Source: Clostridium sp. CAG:914 (GTDB taxonomy: Bacteria > Bacillota_I > Bacilli_A > RF39 > UBA660). Taken from it: a stretch of 64,000 nt of DNA. The position numbers and the translations under genes are program-made. Under the pieces are notes generated by a model. It had not been told where the DNA came from, searched no databases, and saw nothing but the letters and a program-made list of their open reading frames with translations. Each line of letters begins with the position of its first letter. The first letter of the stretch is position 1. Of the stretch, positions 2,397-42,135 are shown in pieces. Location of the stretch: positions 9,495 to 73,494 of the forward strand of contig FR902155.1 of assembly GCA_000437895.1 (NCBI GenBank). The letters run 5' to 3'.

Positions 2397-2939
2397 ATGG
2401 AAAATATAATTAATAATACTGAAGAAAAGATGATGAATGCTATTACAACACTTGAAAATAGATTTACTAATGTAAGAGCAGGAAGAGCAAATCCCAATAT
2501 GTTAGATGGAATAATGGTTGAATATTATGGTGTCCCAACTCCATTAAAACAATTAGCAAATATAACAATACCGGAAGCAAGACAATTATCTATTAAACCA
2601 TTTGATAAAAGTGCTTTAAATGGTATTGAAAAAGCTATATTTGAAGCAAACCTAGGAATTACTCCAAATAATAATGGTGAATCAATATTTTTAGTAGTTC
2701 CTGCTTTAACCGAAGACAGAAGAAAAGAGTTAGTTAAACAAGTACATCAAATGGCAGAAGAAGGTAAAATTGCCCTAAGAAATATTAGACAAGATGCTAA
2801 TAACGCCATTAAAAATCTTAAACTGCCAGAAGATGAAGAAAAAAGAGGAAACGAAAGAGTACAAAACTTAATTAATGAATATAATAAAATTATTGAAGAA
2901 AAATTAAAAGAAAAAGAAAAAGAATTAATGACAATTTAA
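2397..2939 (+). CDS. frr: Ribosome recycling factor
   Basis: The translation from MENIINNTEEKMMNAI...VRAGRANPNMLD...LRNIRQDANN is typical RRF. The ATG at 2397 has an AGAGGA RBS, whereas the ORF-track start at 2349 lacks one. Confidence 0.9.
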   Translation: MENIINNTEEKMMNAITTLENRFTNVRAGRANPNMLDGIMVEYYGVPTPLKQLANITIPEARQLSIKPFDKSALNGIEKAIFEANLGITPNNNGESIFLVVPALTEDRRKELVKQVHQMAEEGKIALRNIRQDANNAIKNLKLPEDEEKRGNERVQNLINEYNKIIEEKLKEKEKELMTI

Positions 2940-2944
2940 TGCAA

Positions 2945-3140
2945 TGATAAGGATTTAGTAGTATACCAAAAGTATTATAGAGAGTAAGTGTTGGTGTAAA
3001 CTTATATATAAGTAAGTATATGAATTCGCCCTTTAGCATTATGGGTAAGCCCGTTATAGCTTTAAGTGTATAACATACGTTATAAAAGAAGGTGGTACCG
3101 CGGATTAATAATTCGTCCTTTTGTTACCATCTTTTTATTT
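2945..3140 (+). promoter_or_regulatory. T-box riboswitch leader (Phe specifier) controlling pheST
   Basis: Conserved T-box core AAGGTGGTACCGCGG at 3089-3103. The leader has an AGAGA/GA-motif stem region, and a UUC (Phe) codon in GAATTCGCC is the candidate specifier. A terminator helix (3089-3097 pairing with 3125-3133) is followed by a U-tract at 3134-3140, just upstream of the pheS RBS. Confidence 0.8.
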
Positions 3141-12075: not shown

Positions 12076-12311
12076 AGTTTTTTAAAAACAAATGAAAGAG
12101 ACGATACTATAGAGAATTAATAGAGAGTGACTAGTTGGTGGAAAGTCATATGAATTTATAGTATAGATCACTCTGGATGTATCTGTTTGATATTTAGAAT
12201 AGATCGGGTAATACCGTTAAATATAAATTAAGTGCACTATAGTTAGTGAATTAAGGTGGTACCACGGTTATAATCGTCCTTATATATAATAAAATATATA
12301 AGGATTTTTTT
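12076..12311 (+). promoter_or_regulatory. T-box riboswitch leader (Ile specifier) controlling ileS
   Basis: AGAGA stem-I region, with AUC in GATCAC as the candidate specifier codon. The T-box core AAGGTGGTACCACGG lies at about 12253-12267. The terminator stem TCCTTATATAT (12277-12287) / ATATATAAGGA (12294-12304) is followed by T7 (12305-12311) and then a GGAGG RBS. Confidence 0.8.
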
Positions 12312-36371: not shown

Positions 36372-36437
36372 TAATGAACCTCTTTCTAAATAACAAATAT
36401 AATTAAATAAATTTCAGATAATCAATTATATATAACT

Positions 36438-36475
36438 ATTATATCAAAAAAAATATAAAAAATCATTAAATTCTC
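36438..36475 (-). promoter_or_regulatory. Candidate extended -10 promoter for the MacB-type ABC operon
   Basis: Minus strand: TTTTTTTTGATATAATAG, with the TGnTATAAT at + 36440-36448. The -35 region is AT-rich and non-consensus. Confidence 0.3.
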
Positions 36476-36842
36476 AACTATATAATTTTTAAATTTGATA
36501 ATTGTTACTGGATCTAAATCATTAATTAATTCTTTTTATTTATAATTAAAAAATTATTTATAATAAATTTAGTAGCAATAATATTACAAGCTCGTTTAAA
36601 TAATTAATTATTTGAAATTCCTATATTTTTAGTACTATAAAATATTCATCATCAAAACTCATAAATCATCAACTTTCTAAAGGACTAATTCTTTTCACAA
36701 AAGCAATTATCATTATAAATAACCACTTTACTTGTATCTTAAGTAAAGTTAGATATTATTATTATTTCTATTTTTTGTAAATCCTTCTAAATCAAAGCAG
36801 TTTTTTAAATAATATTAAACGTTATCAATATTTTTAAATTTA

Positions 36843-36873
36843 TATAAAAAAGCACTTGATTAAACAAGTACTT
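36843..36873 (-). terminator. Intrinsic terminator after fused ABC exporter gene
   Basis: Minus strand: AAGTACTTG-TTTAAT-CAAGTGCTT hairpin (one mismatch) followed by TTTTTTATAT. Confidence 0.5.
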
Positions 36874-36874
36874 A

Positions 36875-38605
36875 TTATGAATTTAAAGATTCTGTCTCAT
36901 ATAATTCTCTATATATATTAGAACTATTTAATAATTCATTATGTCTACCAGACGCTACTATTTTACCATTAGATACAACATGAATAATATCAGCATCCAT
37001 AATCGTAGATAGTCTATGAGCCACAATGACAACAGTATGATTCTTAACCAAATTATCAATAGTTTTCTTTATATACTCTTGAGAAGTATTATCCAAAGCC
37101 GAAGTAGCTTCATCAAACAATATTATTTCACTTCCTTTTGATAAAGTTCTAGCAATCGATAGTCTTTGTTTTTGACCACCAGATAGATTAACACCACCTT
37201 CACCCAAAACAGTATCATACTTCTTAGGTAAAGACATTATATAATCATCTAAATAAGCCATCTTAGTATATTTTCTAATTTCAGAAATAGTAATTTTATT
37301 ATTTATTATTTTAAAATTATCTTTAATACTTCTATTAAAAACAAATGGTTCTTGTCTAATAATTGATATATGCTTTCTAAGGCTCTCCTCTGTTAAATCA
37401 TGAATATTTACTCCATCTATAGTTATTTCTCCTTCTAATGGATCAAATATCCTAGTAAGTAAATTAAATAAAGTTGACTTACCACTACCAGAAGAACCTA
37501 CAATAGCAACCTTCTTATTTGGAAAAATAGATAGATTAAAATTATCTAATAATTTTTCTTCATCAGGATAAGCAAAAGTAACATCCTTAAATTGTATTAT
37601 ACCATTAACTTTATTTAATTCCTTAATACCAAACTTTTCATCATCATAAATTCTATTCTCTAATATATCATTAACTCTAGATATAGAAACAATAACTTTT
37701 TGATAAGTTTGTGTCAAATCATTAATATTTTCTATAAGCCAAGTATAACGATATACATAATAAGTCATAGCCACAAAAAATGTTAATGAAATATTTTTAT
37801 AATATAATAATATAACACAAGTAGCAAATACCCCTACTTCTAATGTTGATTTAAGAAATCTAGTTTTAATATTAAAACTTTTTTGTATATCAATTTCTTC
37901 TTTAGATTTATTAAATATATCTTTAATAATATCTATAATATCATTAATTAAATTATTTTTAATTCCCAATGTTTTAATTTCTCTTACACCCCTAATTGAT
38001 TCTGTAGCTAAAGAAGTAAACTTATCTTGCTCTTTTTTTCTCTCTTTATGAATTTTTCTAAGTAAAGGATTATATTTTTTAAGTATCAAAAATAATATTG
38101 ATACAAAAAACAATATTTCTAACCCTACTATCCATGAATTAATAAAAACATATACTATAACTATTAATGAAGCAACCAAAGAGGATATAACATTAAGAAT
38201 TCTACCAAAAGCAAAGCTTAATGTATCAGCATCATTAGTTATTCTATTAATTATCTCTCCAGATGAAGTTTTTTCATAGGCAACAGCAGGTAAATTAAGT
38301 GTTTTCTTATAAGTATAAAAACCTAATTTTCTAGTTAAAGCACTTTCTATAGTATATAACATAGAATTTGCCTTATGTAATAACACACCATCCATAGTTA
38401 CTTCAAGTATAAAATATATACCCAAATAAACCAAAGAACTAATTACATTAAGATTTGTAATTTCTTCAACTGCTCTACCATTTAAATATCCTGTAAAAAT
38501 TTCACAAATTCCAGAAGCAAATATTATTATACTTGCAATAATAAGTTTTTTCTTATCTTCTTTAATTAATTTAATTATAGGTCTAAATTCTTTCAAACTT
38601 TTCAT
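36875..38605 (-). CDS. ABC transporter, fused permease/ATP-binding (type I exporter, MsbA/LmrA-like)
   Basis: A six-TM domain, then Walker A GSSGSGKSTLFNLL, signature LSGGQKQRLSIARTL and Walker B ILFDEATSALD. AGGAGG RBS 6 nt upstream of the ATG. Confidence 0.9.
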   Translation of the reverse strand: MKSLKEFRPIIKLIKEDKKKLIIASIIIFASGICEIFTGYLNGRAVEEITNLNVISSLVYLGIYFILEVTMDGVLLHKANSMLYTIESALTRKLGFYTYKKTLNLPAVAYEKTSSGEIINRITNDADTLSFAFGRILNVISSLVASLIVIVYVFINSWIVGLEILFFVSILFLILKKYNPLLRKIHKERKKEQDKFTSLATESIRGVREIKTLGIKNNLINDIIDIIKDIFNKSKEEIDIQKSFNIKTRFLKSTLEVGVFATCVILLYYKNISLTFFVAMTYYVYRYTWLIENINDLTQTYQKVIVSISRVNDILENRIYDDEKFGIKELNKVNGIIQFKDVTFAYPDEEKLLDNFNLSIFPNKKVAIVGSSGSGKSTLFNLLTRIFDPLEGEITIDGVNIHDLTEESLRKHISIIRQEPFVFNRSIKDNFKIINNKITISEIRKYTKMAYLDDYIMSLPKKYDTVLGEGGVNLSGGQKQRLSIARTLSKGSEIILFDEATSALDNTSQEYIKKTIDNLVKNHTVVIVAHRLSTIMDADIIHVVSNGKIVASGRHNELLNSSNIYRELYETESLNS

Positions 38606-38617
38606 ATCTAACCTCCT

Positions 38618-38648
38618 AAAAAAAGACCACTTATAATTAAGTAGTCTT
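38618..38648 (-). terminator. Intrinsic terminator (attenuator) between leader ORF and ABC exporter RBS
   Basis: Minus strand: 8-bp stem AAGACTAC / GTGGTCTT (one G-U pair) with a 10-nt loop, followed by T7. The T-tract ends directly at the AGGAGG RBS (38612-38617) of the exporter. Confidence 0.6.
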
Positions 38649-38660
38649 GATAATTAAAAT

Positions 38661-38747
38661 TTACATTGTACGTGGAAAACACCAAAGCTCTCCACTTCTA
38701 TCAAAAACTACCTTATCAAAAATATTTAAATTAATCATTATCTTCAT
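38661..38747 (-). CDS. Candidate 28-aa leader peptide MKIMINLNIFDKVVFDRSGELWCFPRTM
   Basis: AAAGGAG RBS 9 nt upstream of the ATG (38747-38745) and TAA at 38663-38661. A near-consensus promoter lies about 40 nt upstream. Confidence 0.45.
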   Translation of the reverse strand: MKIMINLNIFDKVVFDRSGELWCFPRTM

Positions 38748-38781
38748 TGTTTTCCACTCCTTTCTCTTTAAATTCAACTTA

Positions 38782-38810
38782 ACTATATCATACTAGTATA
38801 CGCATGTCAA
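38782..38810 (-). promoter_or_regulatory. Near-consensus sigma-A promoter driving leader ORF + ABC exporter
   Basis: Minus strand: -35 TTGACA (+ 38805-38810), 17-nt spacer, -10 TATAGT (+ 38782-38787). Confidence 0.65.
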
Positions 38811-38837
38811 CGCTTTTTTGTTACAATATATTTAAAT

Positions 38838-39490
38838 TTACTTAATTTCACCATCATGAAATACATAGTATTCTCCAATATAATTAATGCTATTATTGTC
38901 ATCAATAATAATAGCAGATTCATTAGGAAGACCAACAATTTAATGAATATATGAATACTTTTTATTTTCATTAACCCATTCTAAATTATTAATATCAAAA
39001 TGAGGATCAATAGTTATATCAACTAATCCTATTCCATTATAAAACCACGTTTTAGGATAATCTTTATCATTAGAATAGTACCCCTTTATAGCCATATTCA
39101 TAGATCCAGCACTTACACCAATTAATATCTTATTTTTAAATAACTTTTTACAATCAATTTTTCTTAAAACTTCTAATTGTTTAAAAGGATCACCACCCAT
39201 CAAATGAATAATATCACTTTTATTAATTATATCAATCATTTCATCTAAAGAATTTCTATAATCAAGTAAATAGTACTCTTTAATATTAACATCTAATTGA
39301 TTAAACATTCCCTTAACACCAAGTGCCATATCAGTGCCATTAAAATAGTCATCATTTTTTTAGCACAATCCGAAGCAGCAATAGCTACCAAAGAATTACA
39401 ATTCTTTAATTCTTTATTAAGAAATTTCTTTACATCTTTACTAAACCCAATCCTTTTATCTGGTCCACTTAACATTATAATCATATACAC
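38838..39490 (-). pseudogene. Peptidase S51 (dipeptidase E/PepE-like) pseudogene
   Basis: Conserved S51 motifs (HLMGG; catalytic Ser in GVSAGSM) are split across two frames by an 11-bp tandem duplication (+ AGTGCCAT-ATC-AGTGCCAT, 39322-39340). An in-frame TAA at 38942-38940 is followed by 33 more in-frame codons (GLPNESAIIIDDNNSINYIGEYYVFHDGEIK) ending at 38840-38838. Confidence 0.7.
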
Positions 39491-39576: not shown

Positions 39577-40356
39577 TTATGAACCAGTACTTGTATAATG
39601 TTTAACACCATAATTAAATGAATATATACACGGAATTAAATATATAAAACATAGTATTGGTGATAACAAATGCCAAACACTATTAGATTTACCTACAAAG
39701 TATAGAAGTGGATAATAATTAACTGAAGCATAAGGAATAATAAAACTAAATATAAATATAACTCCTTTTTTAAATATACCAATAGGATATTGAGCCATAT
39801 GTTTACCACCATCAGTAAGTAAATTCTTCACTTCAAGACCATGAACAGTAACAAAACAATATGATGCCATTAGAACAAATATAGCAAAAAATAACACTAT
39901 TGAAGATAAAATCATTACCAATAACAAAATTATTTTCCCTATAGTTAATTCAATATCTAATTTATATAAAGAAATAATTAAAATAATTATTCCCTGAAAA
40001 GTTCTAGCTAACTTAGAAAAATCCATTTTACTACACATTACTTGAAATAAAATACCATATGGTCTTAATAAAAGTCTATCTAATGAGCCATCTATAATAA
40101 AATCTTCAAATTTATCTATTCCTTTAAAAAATATCTCATTAAAAGAAAAGCCAATATTAATAATAGAAAAACAAAGTAATACTTCATATAAAGAAAAACC
40201 TTTAATATTATTAAATTTAGTAAATAAAGAAATAATTAAAAAATAATATGTAAAAAAAACAAATATCTGACTAATTAAACTCATAATAAATGACCATTTA
40301 TATTCTAATTGACTCTTTAAATTTTGTTTTAAATGAGAAAAATATAACTTAACCAC
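39577..40356 (-). CDS. ABC-2 family transporter permease
   Basis: 259 aa with six TM helices. Typical of the uncharacterised ABC-2 permease pairs found with COG4586-type ATPases. Confidence 0.6.
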   Translation of the reverse strand: MVKLYFSHLKQNLKSQLEYKWSFIMSLISQIFVFFTYYFLIISLFTKFNNIKGFSLYEVLLCFSIINIGFSFNEIFFKGIDKFEDFIIDGSLDRLLLRPYGILFQVMCSKMDFSKLARTFQGIIILIISLYKLDIELTIGKIILLLVMILSSIVLFFAIFVLMASYCFVTVHGLEVKNLLTDGGKHMAQYPIGIFKKGVIFIFSFIIPYASVNYYPLLYFVGKSNSVWHLLSPILCFIYLIPCIYSFNYGVKHYTSTGS

Positions 40357-41155
40357 CCTGTATTACCGCCTTTCTTAATGTAATTTTAGATATAAAATAC
40401 CCTAAAGCAATAATAATAATTATCCATATAAAAGAACCAATTAACAAATGAGTTCCTTCGTATAATGATATACTTCCTGAATATATTCTAAAAGAAAAAT
40501 CTCCAATATATCTAAATGGCAATAAATTAGCTATCTTAAGTAACCAATCAGGAAAAAATGGTAATGGTATAGTACCACCCATAAACACTTCAGCAATAGC
40601 AGCATATATAGTTATAAATCCTTTATCATCAATCGTATACATAGTTAATATATGTATAAGTAAATTTATTGAAGAAATAAGTAATACAGATAATATTAAA
40701 GAAATAATAAATATAACTAAATTCATAAAACTAATAGGTAATGATAAATGATAAGGATATGGTAAAATATACCCAAGTAAAAGTATAGGCCACATTCTTA
40801 GTAATGTAGAAACTATCTTTTTAGATAAAAACTTAATATACCATTTAAAATAAAAGTCTTGTGGTCTAATAAGTTCATAAGCCAAATTACCATTCTTAAT
40901 CATATCAAGAAGTTCTTTATCTTTTTCATATGGATAAATTAAAGCAAAGAAAGCTTGTTGCAACCAAATATATGTAACTAATTCCTGATAATTCATAGGC
41001 AATGCACTATCCGTACCCGATTCATAAAAAGCCAAATATACCATAATAAACATAAAACCAAAAAATATTTGTGTAGACACTCCAGCCCAAGCATCTGCCC
41101 TATATTGTAAATTAGTAATAATTCTTAACTTAAAATAGCTTAAATAACTTTTCAT
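40349..41155 (-). CDS. ABC-2 family transporter permease
   Basis: 268 aa with six TM helices. Overlaps its neighbours by 8 nt and 4 nt, indicating an operon. Confidence 0.6.
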   Translation of the reverse strand: MKSYLSYFKLRIITNLQYRADAWAGVSTQIFFGFMFIMVYLAFYESGTDSALPMNYQELVTYIWLQQAFFALIYPYEKDKELLDMIKNGNLAYELIRPQDFYFKWYIKFLSKKIVSTLLRMWPILLLGYILPYPYHLSLPISFMNLVIFIISLILSVLLISSINLLIHILTMYTIDDKGFITIYAAIAEVFMGGTIPLPFFPDWLLKIANLLPFRYIGDFSFRIYSGSISLYEGTHLLIGSFIWIIIIIALGYFISKITLRKAVIQGG

Positions 41156-42135
41156 AGATTATATTCCCCATATAATTTAATTATTATATTATCAATACTC
41201 TCATTATCAATCTCTATATCTTCAATATCGTAATTCTTAGATAAATAATTTAAAAAATAAGATACAGAAATAACATTAGAATCAATCGTATACATATAAC
41301 CATTATCTACCTTATTTGCTTCCATTACACCCTTATTTTTAATATTACCAATCTTATCAGAAGTAACTACCAATATTTTCTTATAACTACCAAATTTATG
41401 CTTTAATTCTTCTAAATTACCATCATAAAGTATACTACCATTACCTATTAAAATAATTCTCTTAGCAAGAGCTTCAATATCCGCCATATCATGAGTAGTT
41501 AATATAACTGTTATCTTATTTTTTTTATTTATTTTTTTAATAAAATCACGAACTATATTTTTACTAATAGCATCTAACCCTATCGTTGGTTCATCTAAAA
41601 ATAATATTTTAGGCTTATGCAATAATGCTGAAGCTATTTCACAACGCATTCTCTCACCAAGACTAAGTGTTCTAACAGGTTTCTTAATAATTTCTGAAAT
41701 TCCCAACAACTTAACTAATTCTTCTTTTGTTTGATAATATTCGTTATCTGGTATTTTATAAATATCATGGAGCAAATCAAACGTATCTTCTGCTGGTATA
41801 TCCCAAGATAATTGACTACGATTACCAAATACTACTCCAATAGAAGAAACATATTTCTTCCTATCTTTAACAGGGTTAAGTCCATCTACTAAAATACTAC
41901 CAGAACTAGGAGTAAGTATACCAGATAACATCTTAATCGTCGTACTCTTTCCAGCTCCATTAGGACCTATATATCCCACAATTTCCCCTTCTTCAATAGA
42001 AAAGTTTATATCTTTAACTGCATCAATATAAACATATTCTCTTTTAAAGAAAGACTTTAAGGCAGACCTAAGACCACTATTTCGCTTAGCCACCTTAAAA
42101 GTTTTAGTCACATTACTGACTATAATTTTTGCCAT
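41152..42135 (-). CDS. ABC transporter ATP-binding protein with C-terminal extension
   Basis: Walker A GPNGAGKSTT, signature LSLGERMR and Walker B ILFLDEPTIGLD. 327 aa. Confidence 0.85.
   Translation of the reverse strand: MAKIIVSNVTKTFKVAKRNSGLRSALKSFFKREYVYIDAVKDINFSIEEGEIVGYIGPNGAGKSTTIKMLSGILTPSSGSILVDGLNPVKDRKKYVSSIGVVFGNRSQLSWDIPAEDTFDLLHDIYKIPDNEYYQTKEELVKLLGISEIIKKPVRTLSLGERMRCEIASALLHKPKILFLDEPTIGLDAISKNIVRDFIKKINKKNKITVILTTHDMADIEALAKRIILIGNGSILYDGNLEELKHKFGSYKKILVVTSDKIGNIKNKGVMEANKVDNGYMYTIDSNVISVSYFLNYLSKNYDIEDIEIDNESIDNIIIKLYGEYNL

Follow-up and report, generated by a model that had tools for sequence, protein, structure and literature searches.

A putative translation-sensing attenuator leader ahead of an ABC exporter gene in uncultured gut Bacilli

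Introduction

In Bacillus subtilis, the bmrB leader ahead of bmrCD responds to lincomycin, erythromycin and chloramphenicol, and a bmrB start-codon mutant shows low, non-inducible expression (PMC4191407). The response requires translation of the leader and is elicited by 50S-targeting antibiotics, and the promoter is itself unresponsive to the drug (PMC4191407). In vmlR, the upstream open reading frame (uORF) lies within an anti-antiterminator hairpin, whose base is opened when a ribosome stalls at the uORF start; this frees the antiterminator, which then overrides the intrinsic terminator (PMC9226507). Attenuators of the Escherichia coli trp type consist of several RNA segments with a leader open reading frame (ORF) over the upstream ones, and they terminate transcription both without translation and with unimpeded translation. 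In the erm and cat leaders (ermC, ermK and cat86), a short ORF senses an antibiotic by ribosome stalling and RNA refolding. The best-studied of these, ermC and cat86, act on translation by exposing the Shine-Dalgarno (SD) sequence, and they need a defined arrest peptide. Here we describe a leader of this general kind on the minus strand of a 64,000-nucleotide (nt) stretch of contig FR902155.1 from Clostridium sp. CAG:914 (the whole stretch is called the window below), where it precedes a gene for an ATP-binding cassette (ABC) exporter.

Our analysis indicates that this leader is probably a transcription attenuator of the ribosome-mediated (leader-peptide) type, controlling a monocistronic gene for an ABC exporter. 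It resembles bmrB in combining a leader ORF with a terminator and with putative antiterminator and anti-antiterminator helices ahead of a type I ABC exporter. However, bmrB has 53 codons with the terminator inside the ORF, whereas the ORFs described here have 25-36 codons and stop short of the terminator stem or at it. Two genes encode the heterodimer BmrCD, whereas here a single half-transporter gene is followed by its own terminator, and the bmrB promoter differs in being AbrB-controlled. No sequence relationship between the two is apparent, no comparison of the leader sequences having been made, and ORF length, terminator position and gene content set them apart.

With the vmlR uORF(MIN), and also with the msrD leader MsrDL, the locus shares an ORF start that lies inside the anti-antiterminator hairpin. 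The vmlR uORF, however, has three codons and serves an ABC-F ribosome-protection factor rather than a membrane exporter, and NusG-dependent pausing is part of the vmlR mechanism, as is a second hairpin that hides the SD of the structural gene. In the present leader, the ORF extends over the entire hairpin and holds the antiterminator strand. Unlike trp-type attenuators, the present leader has no regulatory codon run, its anti-antiterminator joins the start region to the ORF end rather than adjacent segments, and the regulated gene is an exporter. In contrast to ermC and cat86, an intrinsic terminator would be controlled, and the peptide sequence is not conserved. The element is an undescribed leader family, without a match in Rfam, of a known translation-sensing kind of attenuator.

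Results

The features of the locus are collected in Table 1. A first-pass annotation of this DNA had proposed a near-consensus promoter, followed by a leader ORF with a good SD and by an 8-base-pair (bp) hairpin whose T7 tract abuts the AGGAGG ribosome-binding site (RBS) of the exporter gene. The promoter was found at the proposed place, with 11 of 12 consensus positions and an extended -10 element, and the ORF and its SD are present as well. The tract of seven U between the terminator core and the RBS was also borne out, as was its direct contact with the RBS, but the stem is longer than proposed: its core has 9 bp including one G.U pair, pairing of two tract U with AA would lengthen it to 11 bp, and the loop has 4 nt. 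Terminators of this kind numbered 0.0 in shuffles of the region.

The annotation had further argued that the exporter can be expressed by read-through alone, and had named a separate promoter between hairpin and RBS as a finding that would speak against this. The consensus scan found none there. Between 38590 and 38830 it returned a single strong promoter-like site, the TTGACA/TATAGT one. A second promoter-like match within the leader (9/12, 38694-38665) sits upstream of the terminator and is therefore unable to bypass it. Expression of the exporter by read-through alone is thus consistent with the promoter scan.

The exporter protein was next used as the query in a scan of one genome per species, which gave about 37 orthologous loci. 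Exporter identity was 61-83% for most of them and about 45% for a second group. The host genomes are uncultured and mostly gut-derived; the label is Bacilli, Tenericutes or Mycoplasmatota in most cases and a different one in a few. We found the same module in the 160-200 nt upstream of the exporter at 32 of the 37 genome loci. Metagenome contigs were searched with the 21-mer GAAUUUAAAGAGAAAGGAGUG, the 5' block of the leader, and 110 stretches were obtained, 95 of which continue into an exporter orthologue (45-99% identity), with nine too short to judge. Where the sequence is long enough, the complete leader, consisting of the 5' block, the ORF and the terminator, precedes this exporter alone in the metagenomes.

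The 5' block occurs once in the window, with 0 copies expected by chance, and is identical in 27 genome loci and in the 110 metagenome stretches. These first 21 nt are near-invariant even between exporter subfamilies that are just 45% identical. Furthermore, a hairpin with a U-run ahead of the exporter RBS was detected in at least 127 of 132 related leaders. The module recurs with this arrangement in more than 100 independent loci and is therefore not a product of chance. Rfam 15 gave no match in 38603-38775 even at E <= 10; at the Rfam gathering thresholds, the whole window gave two T-box leaders elsewhere (2935-3123, 109.9 bits, and 12083-12284, 113.5 bits, both on the plus strand) and nothing at the leader.

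Several candidates from these scans were rejected. Five metagenome stretches (L093, L096, L129, L163 and L168) are chance 21-mer matches without a leader. The terminators that the scan assigned to L081, L083 and L110 are hairpins inside the exporter gene and were mis-assignments; in L081 and L110, ACUACU/AGUAGU terminators are seen in the printed alignment. A CRISPR-DR45 hit at 38990-39013 scored 21 bits against a threshold of 37 (E = 2.6) and was dismissed as chance. A further stretch (L091, 220-400) has the 5' block, but its ORF runs into the frame of an Era-like GTPase, with no terminator or exporter, and it is an assembly chimera or a rearrangement. Two orthologues of about 70% identity are leaderless (L034:1-300 and L013:3740-4003). 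The first of these retains the promoter and the first bases GAATTT and then goes directly to the RBS, as if the leader had been lost in a natural deletion; constitutive expression of the exporter would be expected.

For the comparisons that follow, 28 representative leaders sharing <80% nucleotide identity were used. The promoter is present in all 28, its -10 element ending 5-7 nt (6 nt in 24 of them) before the first G of the leader, and most of them have the extended -10 TG. Because this distance from promoter to first G is fixed across the representatives, transcription very probably starts at the G at 38775, the G of GAAUUUAAAG. No regulator gene is evident beside the promoter, no examination of gene-level synteny or of candidate regulators having been made. 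The sequence just upstream of the promoter differs among loci. An A-tract, CAAAAAAAGG, is conserved directly 5' of TTGACA in many of them (for example at 38811-38820 in the window and in L001, L012 and L095) and may be an UP-element-like feature.

Every representative has an ORF of 25-36 codons with its ATG 7-10 nt after GGAG. The frame remains open through segment F near the ORF end (Table 1) in each case, and the distance from its end to the terminator stem is -2 to 30 nt. The absence of stops from frame 0 is true by construction, and the evidence is instead the ORF length, the probability of only about 0.055 that a given ORF interior remains open after shuffling, and the stops in the two alternative frames, 104 and 124 across the same 831 codons. 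These observations are evidence that the leader ORF is maintained by selection and translated.

The peptide itself is free to vary. Along a minimum spanning tree of related ORFs, substitutions at the three codon positions numbered 105/115/117, and the synonymous fraction of 0.163 was not above the random expectation of 0.198. The peptides form at least three dissimilar groups (MK.LNLNVFNN..VV...G.LLCF.., M...ANSRQFIF..VQM..G.VL..F and M...FKF..LFLVSKK.KS..VFAPVFAC), and residues that seem conserved coincide with RNA helices: L-N-(S/L/F) corresponds to UUAAAUUY, the 3' strand of a helix that we call P0. Asn accounts for about 20% of the first 12 residues (a hand count over the peptides of the 28 representatives; the window equivalent is 38712-38747), mostly as a consequence of the P0 3' strand, whose UUAAAUU is read as Asn codons. 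The leader peptide of the window is absent from the collections searched, and those of other species are on record merely as 'hypothetical protein' or nameless. An analysis of indel lengths in the ORFs was discarded, since gap placement is arbitrary at 75% identity. On these comparisons, it is the passage of ribosomes that is selected and not the peptide product. Neither a secreted peptide nor an arrest peptide of strictly specific sequence fits well with this lack of amino-acid constraint.

The first-pass annotation had also recommended folding the leader with alternative antiterminator pairings, without identifying any. We found two mutually exclusive folds. The OFF fold is the full-length minimum free energy (MFE) structure of the window leader (-33.1 kcal/mol). 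It contains the terminator and a helix, P1, in which segment A, around the start codon, pairs with the 3' end of the ORF. Within P1, segment F pairs with A, and the CUUUG segment that precedes F pairs with UGAAG, that is, with positions 2-3 of the AUG and with codon 2. The ON fold (-24.8 kcal/mol) is obtained when the 3' arm of the terminator is omitted. It contains P0, a hairpin between the transcript 5' end and leader codons 4-8 (strand UUUAAAU in codons 6-8), a second, local hairpin where F pairs with segment E instead of A, and a helix, D:T5', in which segment D pairs with UUAUCAAGACUACU, the terminator 5' arm (T5') and its flank. The putative antiterminator thus shares the 5' arm of the terminator, and its other strand is inside the ORF.

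The two folds cannot readily coexist. D lies inside the P1 loop and T5' outside it, so that P1 together with D:T5' would form a pseudoknot; the same holds for P0 together with P1. In addition, the strand that can pair with AUGAAG forms the loop of the E:F hairpin, which gives a free start region a toehold for displacing E and forming P1.

Next, the helices were examined with an alignment-free cognate test, in which duplex energies between a leader's own partners were compared with those for partners taken from other representatives (20000 permutations). For A:F, the energy was -16.4 kcal/mol with cognate and -10.2 kcal/mol with non-cognate partners (z = -10.8). D:T5' gave -12.6 vs -7.9 kcal/mol (z = -9.8) and the terminator, as positive control, -11.2 vs -5.9 kcal/mol (z = -11.3); in none of the three was any of the 20000 permutations as low. 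Of the two negative controls, A:T5' gave -5.05 vs -4.73 kcal/mol (z = -1.1, 2732/20000 permutations as low) and D:F gave -12.63 vs -10.86 kcal/mol (z = -3.6, 4/20000).

Covariation was assessed by realigning 70 leaders with a covariance model of the OFF structure and 71 with one of the ON structure. In the OFF alignment, 83.9% of cells were paired compared with 69.3% after shuffling, and the covariation score was 0.424 compared with 0.195 (0/500 shuffles as high), with slid partners reaching at most 0.129. Two P1 pairs are split AU29/GC26 and AU25/GC22/GU13, and the third base of codon 2 (G of AAG) changes together with the C of CUU (GC20/AU8/UA8). The terminator (helix 5) is 94% paired, and 9/9 of its pairs covary. 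In the ON alignment, 78.7% of cells were paired (68.8% shuffled) and the score was 0.314 (0.181 shuffled, 0/500 as high; slid partners at most 0.132). Here D:T5' has changes on both sides at 11/11 pairs, and E:F (helix 3) is 78.6% paired with double changes at 7/8 pairs. For P0 (helix 1), 85.8% of cells are paired; at pair 7:49, 52 sequences have AU and 9 have GC.

Covariance-model alignments are biased towards their own structure, and the sequences are mutually related. The concern about bias is addressed by the agreement of the alignment-free test and the slide controls, and the double-sided changes recur across different subfamilies. RNAalifold on a plain MAFFT alignment recovered the local E:F hairpin alone, because regions of variable length are misaligned there. 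Together, these comparisons show that both folds are conserved and covary, and they support a role of D:T5' as antiterminator and of P1 as anti-antiterminator. The layout that the first-pass annotation had likened to leader-peptide attenuators is thereby strengthened: the ORF is kept open, the terminator is conserved, and both helices that would decide its formation covary.

We then folded the RNA with a 28-nt ribosome footprint forced single-stranded, a model that ignores the bulk of the ribosome. In transcripts reaching to the ORF end, the median probability of P1 was 0.98 without a ribosome. A ribosome on the AUG or on codon 5 lowered P1 to 0 and brought D:T5' to about 0.7, and a ribosome on codon 14 brought D:T5' to 0. 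At full length without a ribosome, the terminator probability was at least 0.8 in 23/28 leaders. It fell below 0.5 in 19/28 leaders when the P-site was at codons 1-7, in 3/28 at mid-ORF positions, and in 20/28 at the last 9 P-site positions. From this model we infer the direction of the switch: read-through would occur when a ribosome is held on the first codons.

In the mechanism that we propose, ribosome occupancy of the start region would pick the fold. If the leader is not translated, A would displace E from F through the toehold in the E:F loop, and P1 would form. This OFF fold would sequester the SD flank, the AUG and codon 2, with D held in the P1 loop and T5' out of its reach, so that the terminator forms. 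A freely moving ribosome would cover D, E and F while the terminator is being synthesised, which would again lead to termination. With a ribosome held at the start or on the first codons, for example by translation inhibitors, A would be blocked and D free; F would pair with E and D with T5', and RNA polymerase would go on into the exporter gene, which would thus be induced. Such logic has been demonstrated for bmrB-bmrCD (PMC4191407) and vmlR (PMC9226507). Ribosome-stalling drugs are the probable trigger. NusG-type TTNTTT pause motifs were, by eye, not consistently present in the leaders, no formal search having been made.

The exporter gene is followed by its own terminator, and the unit is therefore monocistronic. 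The exact protein has the accession CDE95759.1, where it is named 'putative lipid A export protein MsbA' and assigned to Clostridium sp. CAG:914, a genome from human-gut metagenomes. The protein shows sub-threshold similarity to bacteriocin and NHLP exporters in NCBIfam, and its best matches in the PDB are P-glycoprotein halves and bacteriocin exporters.

Just 5' of the promoter lies a remnant of an S51 (dipeptidase E-like) peptidase gene (38838-39329, minus strand), whose Pfam match covers profile positions 52-164 of 206. At 38942-38940 its frame contains a TAA, and the corresponding codon of L139, a 99%-identical strain, is GAA; the remnant is probably a strain-specific pseudogene. Further upstream is a three-gene ABC-2-type exporter operon (39577-42135, minus strand) with an ATPase (42135-41152) and two PF06182 permeases. 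On the other side, a very AT-rich gap of 480 nt (36372-36850), for which Rfam gave no match at E <= 10, separates the exporter terminator from a MacB/FtsX-type ABC operon (36371-33296, minus strand). This region thus contains, next to one another, three distinct systems for ABC export.

Table 1. Features of the leader and of the exporter gene, in window coordinates
Feature	Position	Strand	Basis or remark
Sigma-A-type promoter, TTGACA-17 nt-TGnTATAGT	38782..38810	-	Consensus scan, 11/12 and extended -10 TG
Promoter boxes	-35 38810-38805; TG 38790-38789; TATAGT 38787-38782	-	Sequence scan
5' block GAAUUUAAAGAGAAAGGAGUG	38755..38775	-	Near-invariant; holds P0 5' strand and extended SD
P0 5' strand	about 38774-38767	-	Transcript nt 1-9; ON-model alignment
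Extended SD AGAAAGGAG	38765-38757	-	9 nt ahead of leader ATG
Segment A, P1 5' strand: SD 3' flank GUGGAAAACA and AUGAAG	38742..38757	-	MFE fold, cognate test, covariation
Leader ORF, 28 codons and TAA, peptide MKIMINLNIFDKVVFDRSGELWCFPRTM	ATG 38747, TAA 38663-38661 (38661..38747)	-	Translation
P0 3' strand UUUAAAU, leader codons 6-8	38724..38731	-	Pairs with transcript 5' end
Segment D, putative antiterminator 5' strand GGUAGUUUUUGAUAG, leader codons 12-17	38698..38713	-	Truncated fold, cognate test, covariation
Segment E, copy-like mimic of A, GUGGAGAGC (GUGGAGAG)	38687..38695	-	Pairs locally with F in ON fold
P1 3' strand	38672..38687	-	Segment F UGUUUUCCAC, 38681-38672, and preceding CUUUG
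Intrinsic terminator hairpin	38623..38648	-	5' arm 38648-38638, loop 38637-38634, 3' arm 38633-38623; U tract to 38618
Exporter RBS AGGAGG	38612..38617	-	Directly after last U of tract; same arrangement in relatives
Exporter gene, 576-aa ABCB-type half-transporter (fusion of transmembrane and nucleotide-binding domains, TMD-NBD)	36875..38605	-	PF00664 and PF00005
Exporter's own terminator	36873-36850	-	Terminator scan

Discussion

The conserved ORF, the conserved terminator and two covarying, mutually exclusive folds make a ribosome-mediated attenuator the most probable account of this leader. Some findings weigh against it. In the window's own leader, the equilibrium terminator probability is at least 0.6 at every ribosome position, so that the decision would have to be kinetic. 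The footprint model predicts read-through also for the last 9 positions in 20/28 leaders; if this is sterically real, normal translation could read through and the logic would be reversed. P0, a part of the ON fold, requires a start region free of ribosomes, and the invariance of the first 12 nt is explained in part only. In addition, inspection of the peptides by eye revealed no known arrest motif, no motif search having been run, and the exporter, which matches no NCBIfam family at the curated cut-off, has no assigned substrate.

The alternative that survives best accepts the same RNA switch and translated leader but reverses its logic or gives it a non-antibiotic signal, so that translation capacity or amino-acid supply is reported. 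We consider it unlikely, though deserving of weight. Read-through would then come either from a ribosome that keeps up at the ORF end or stop, as in pyrBI, or from slow early codons in starvation, as in trp. The first variant draws on the low terminator probability with the last 9 P-site positions masked, and on one subfamily (about 14 leaders) whose stop codon overlaps the terminator 5' arm at a distance of -2. Across the family, however, the distance from stop to terminator ranges from -2 to 30 nt, so masking by a terminating ribosome is not general. The starvation variant can point to the frequent Asn in the first 12 residues, but these codons are largely imposed by the P0 strand. Moreover, an exporter that is on by default during growth would need no covarying antiterminator, and the characterised analogues bmrB, vmlR and msrD turn on upon stalling.

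Clearly less likely in our view is a device that senses occupancy of the start codon rather than a drug. In that case a trans-acting factor, or the initiation machinery itself, would recognise the invariant 5' end, GAAUUUAAAGAGAAAGGAGUG; exporter transcription would report initiation capacity or the signal of an unknown binder, and the ORF would have no task other than to license one pioneer ribosome per transcript.

A ligand- or protein-binding RNA switch of riboswitch type seems more improbable still. Here a factor would stabilise either the P1 fold or the fold made of P0, E:F and D:T5', with the ORF in an auxiliary role, such as to reset the fold or to restrict initiation to a single round. 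Neither fold needs a ribosome to be complete, P0 wants a free start region, and the near-invariance of the 5' block across distant exporter subfamilies would suit a binding site. Yet most of the conserved nucleotides are accounted for by the SD, the start codon and the helices, and no conserved, unpaired core of aptamer type is apparent by eye in the alignments. The ORF is open in every lineage, the permissive Rfam search found no family, and the sequence immediately 5' of the promoter varies among loci.

Finally, many bacteriocin loci look similar, with a small ORF and a leaky terminator beside an ABC exporter, and the transporter has the sub-threshold NCBIfam similarity to bacteriocin exporters given above, but we find it scarcely credible that the ORF encodes a secreted bacteriocin or pheromone for which the hairpin sets the ratio of peptide to transporter transcript, given the lack of purifying selection (synonymous fraction and even codon positions), the absence of a double-glycine leader, an exporter of PF00664 and PF00005 only without a C39 peptidase domain, and apparently conserved residues that map to RNA helices.

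The ribosome-mediated attenuator proposed here would be a compact variant of the anti-antiterminator design, in which one ORF spans the start-sequestering helix, the mimic of the start region and the antiterminator strand. Such a design could serve the engineering of translation-sensing switches, and its covariation-backed two-state structure is open to direct testing. Collectively, our results describe a widespread, previously uncurated cis-regulatory leader in poorly studied, uncultured gut Bacilli. If its inducers are ribosome-targeting antibiotics, the 'MsbA-like' exporter would be an inducible efflux determinant in human and livestock commensals, and would belong in resistome surveys.

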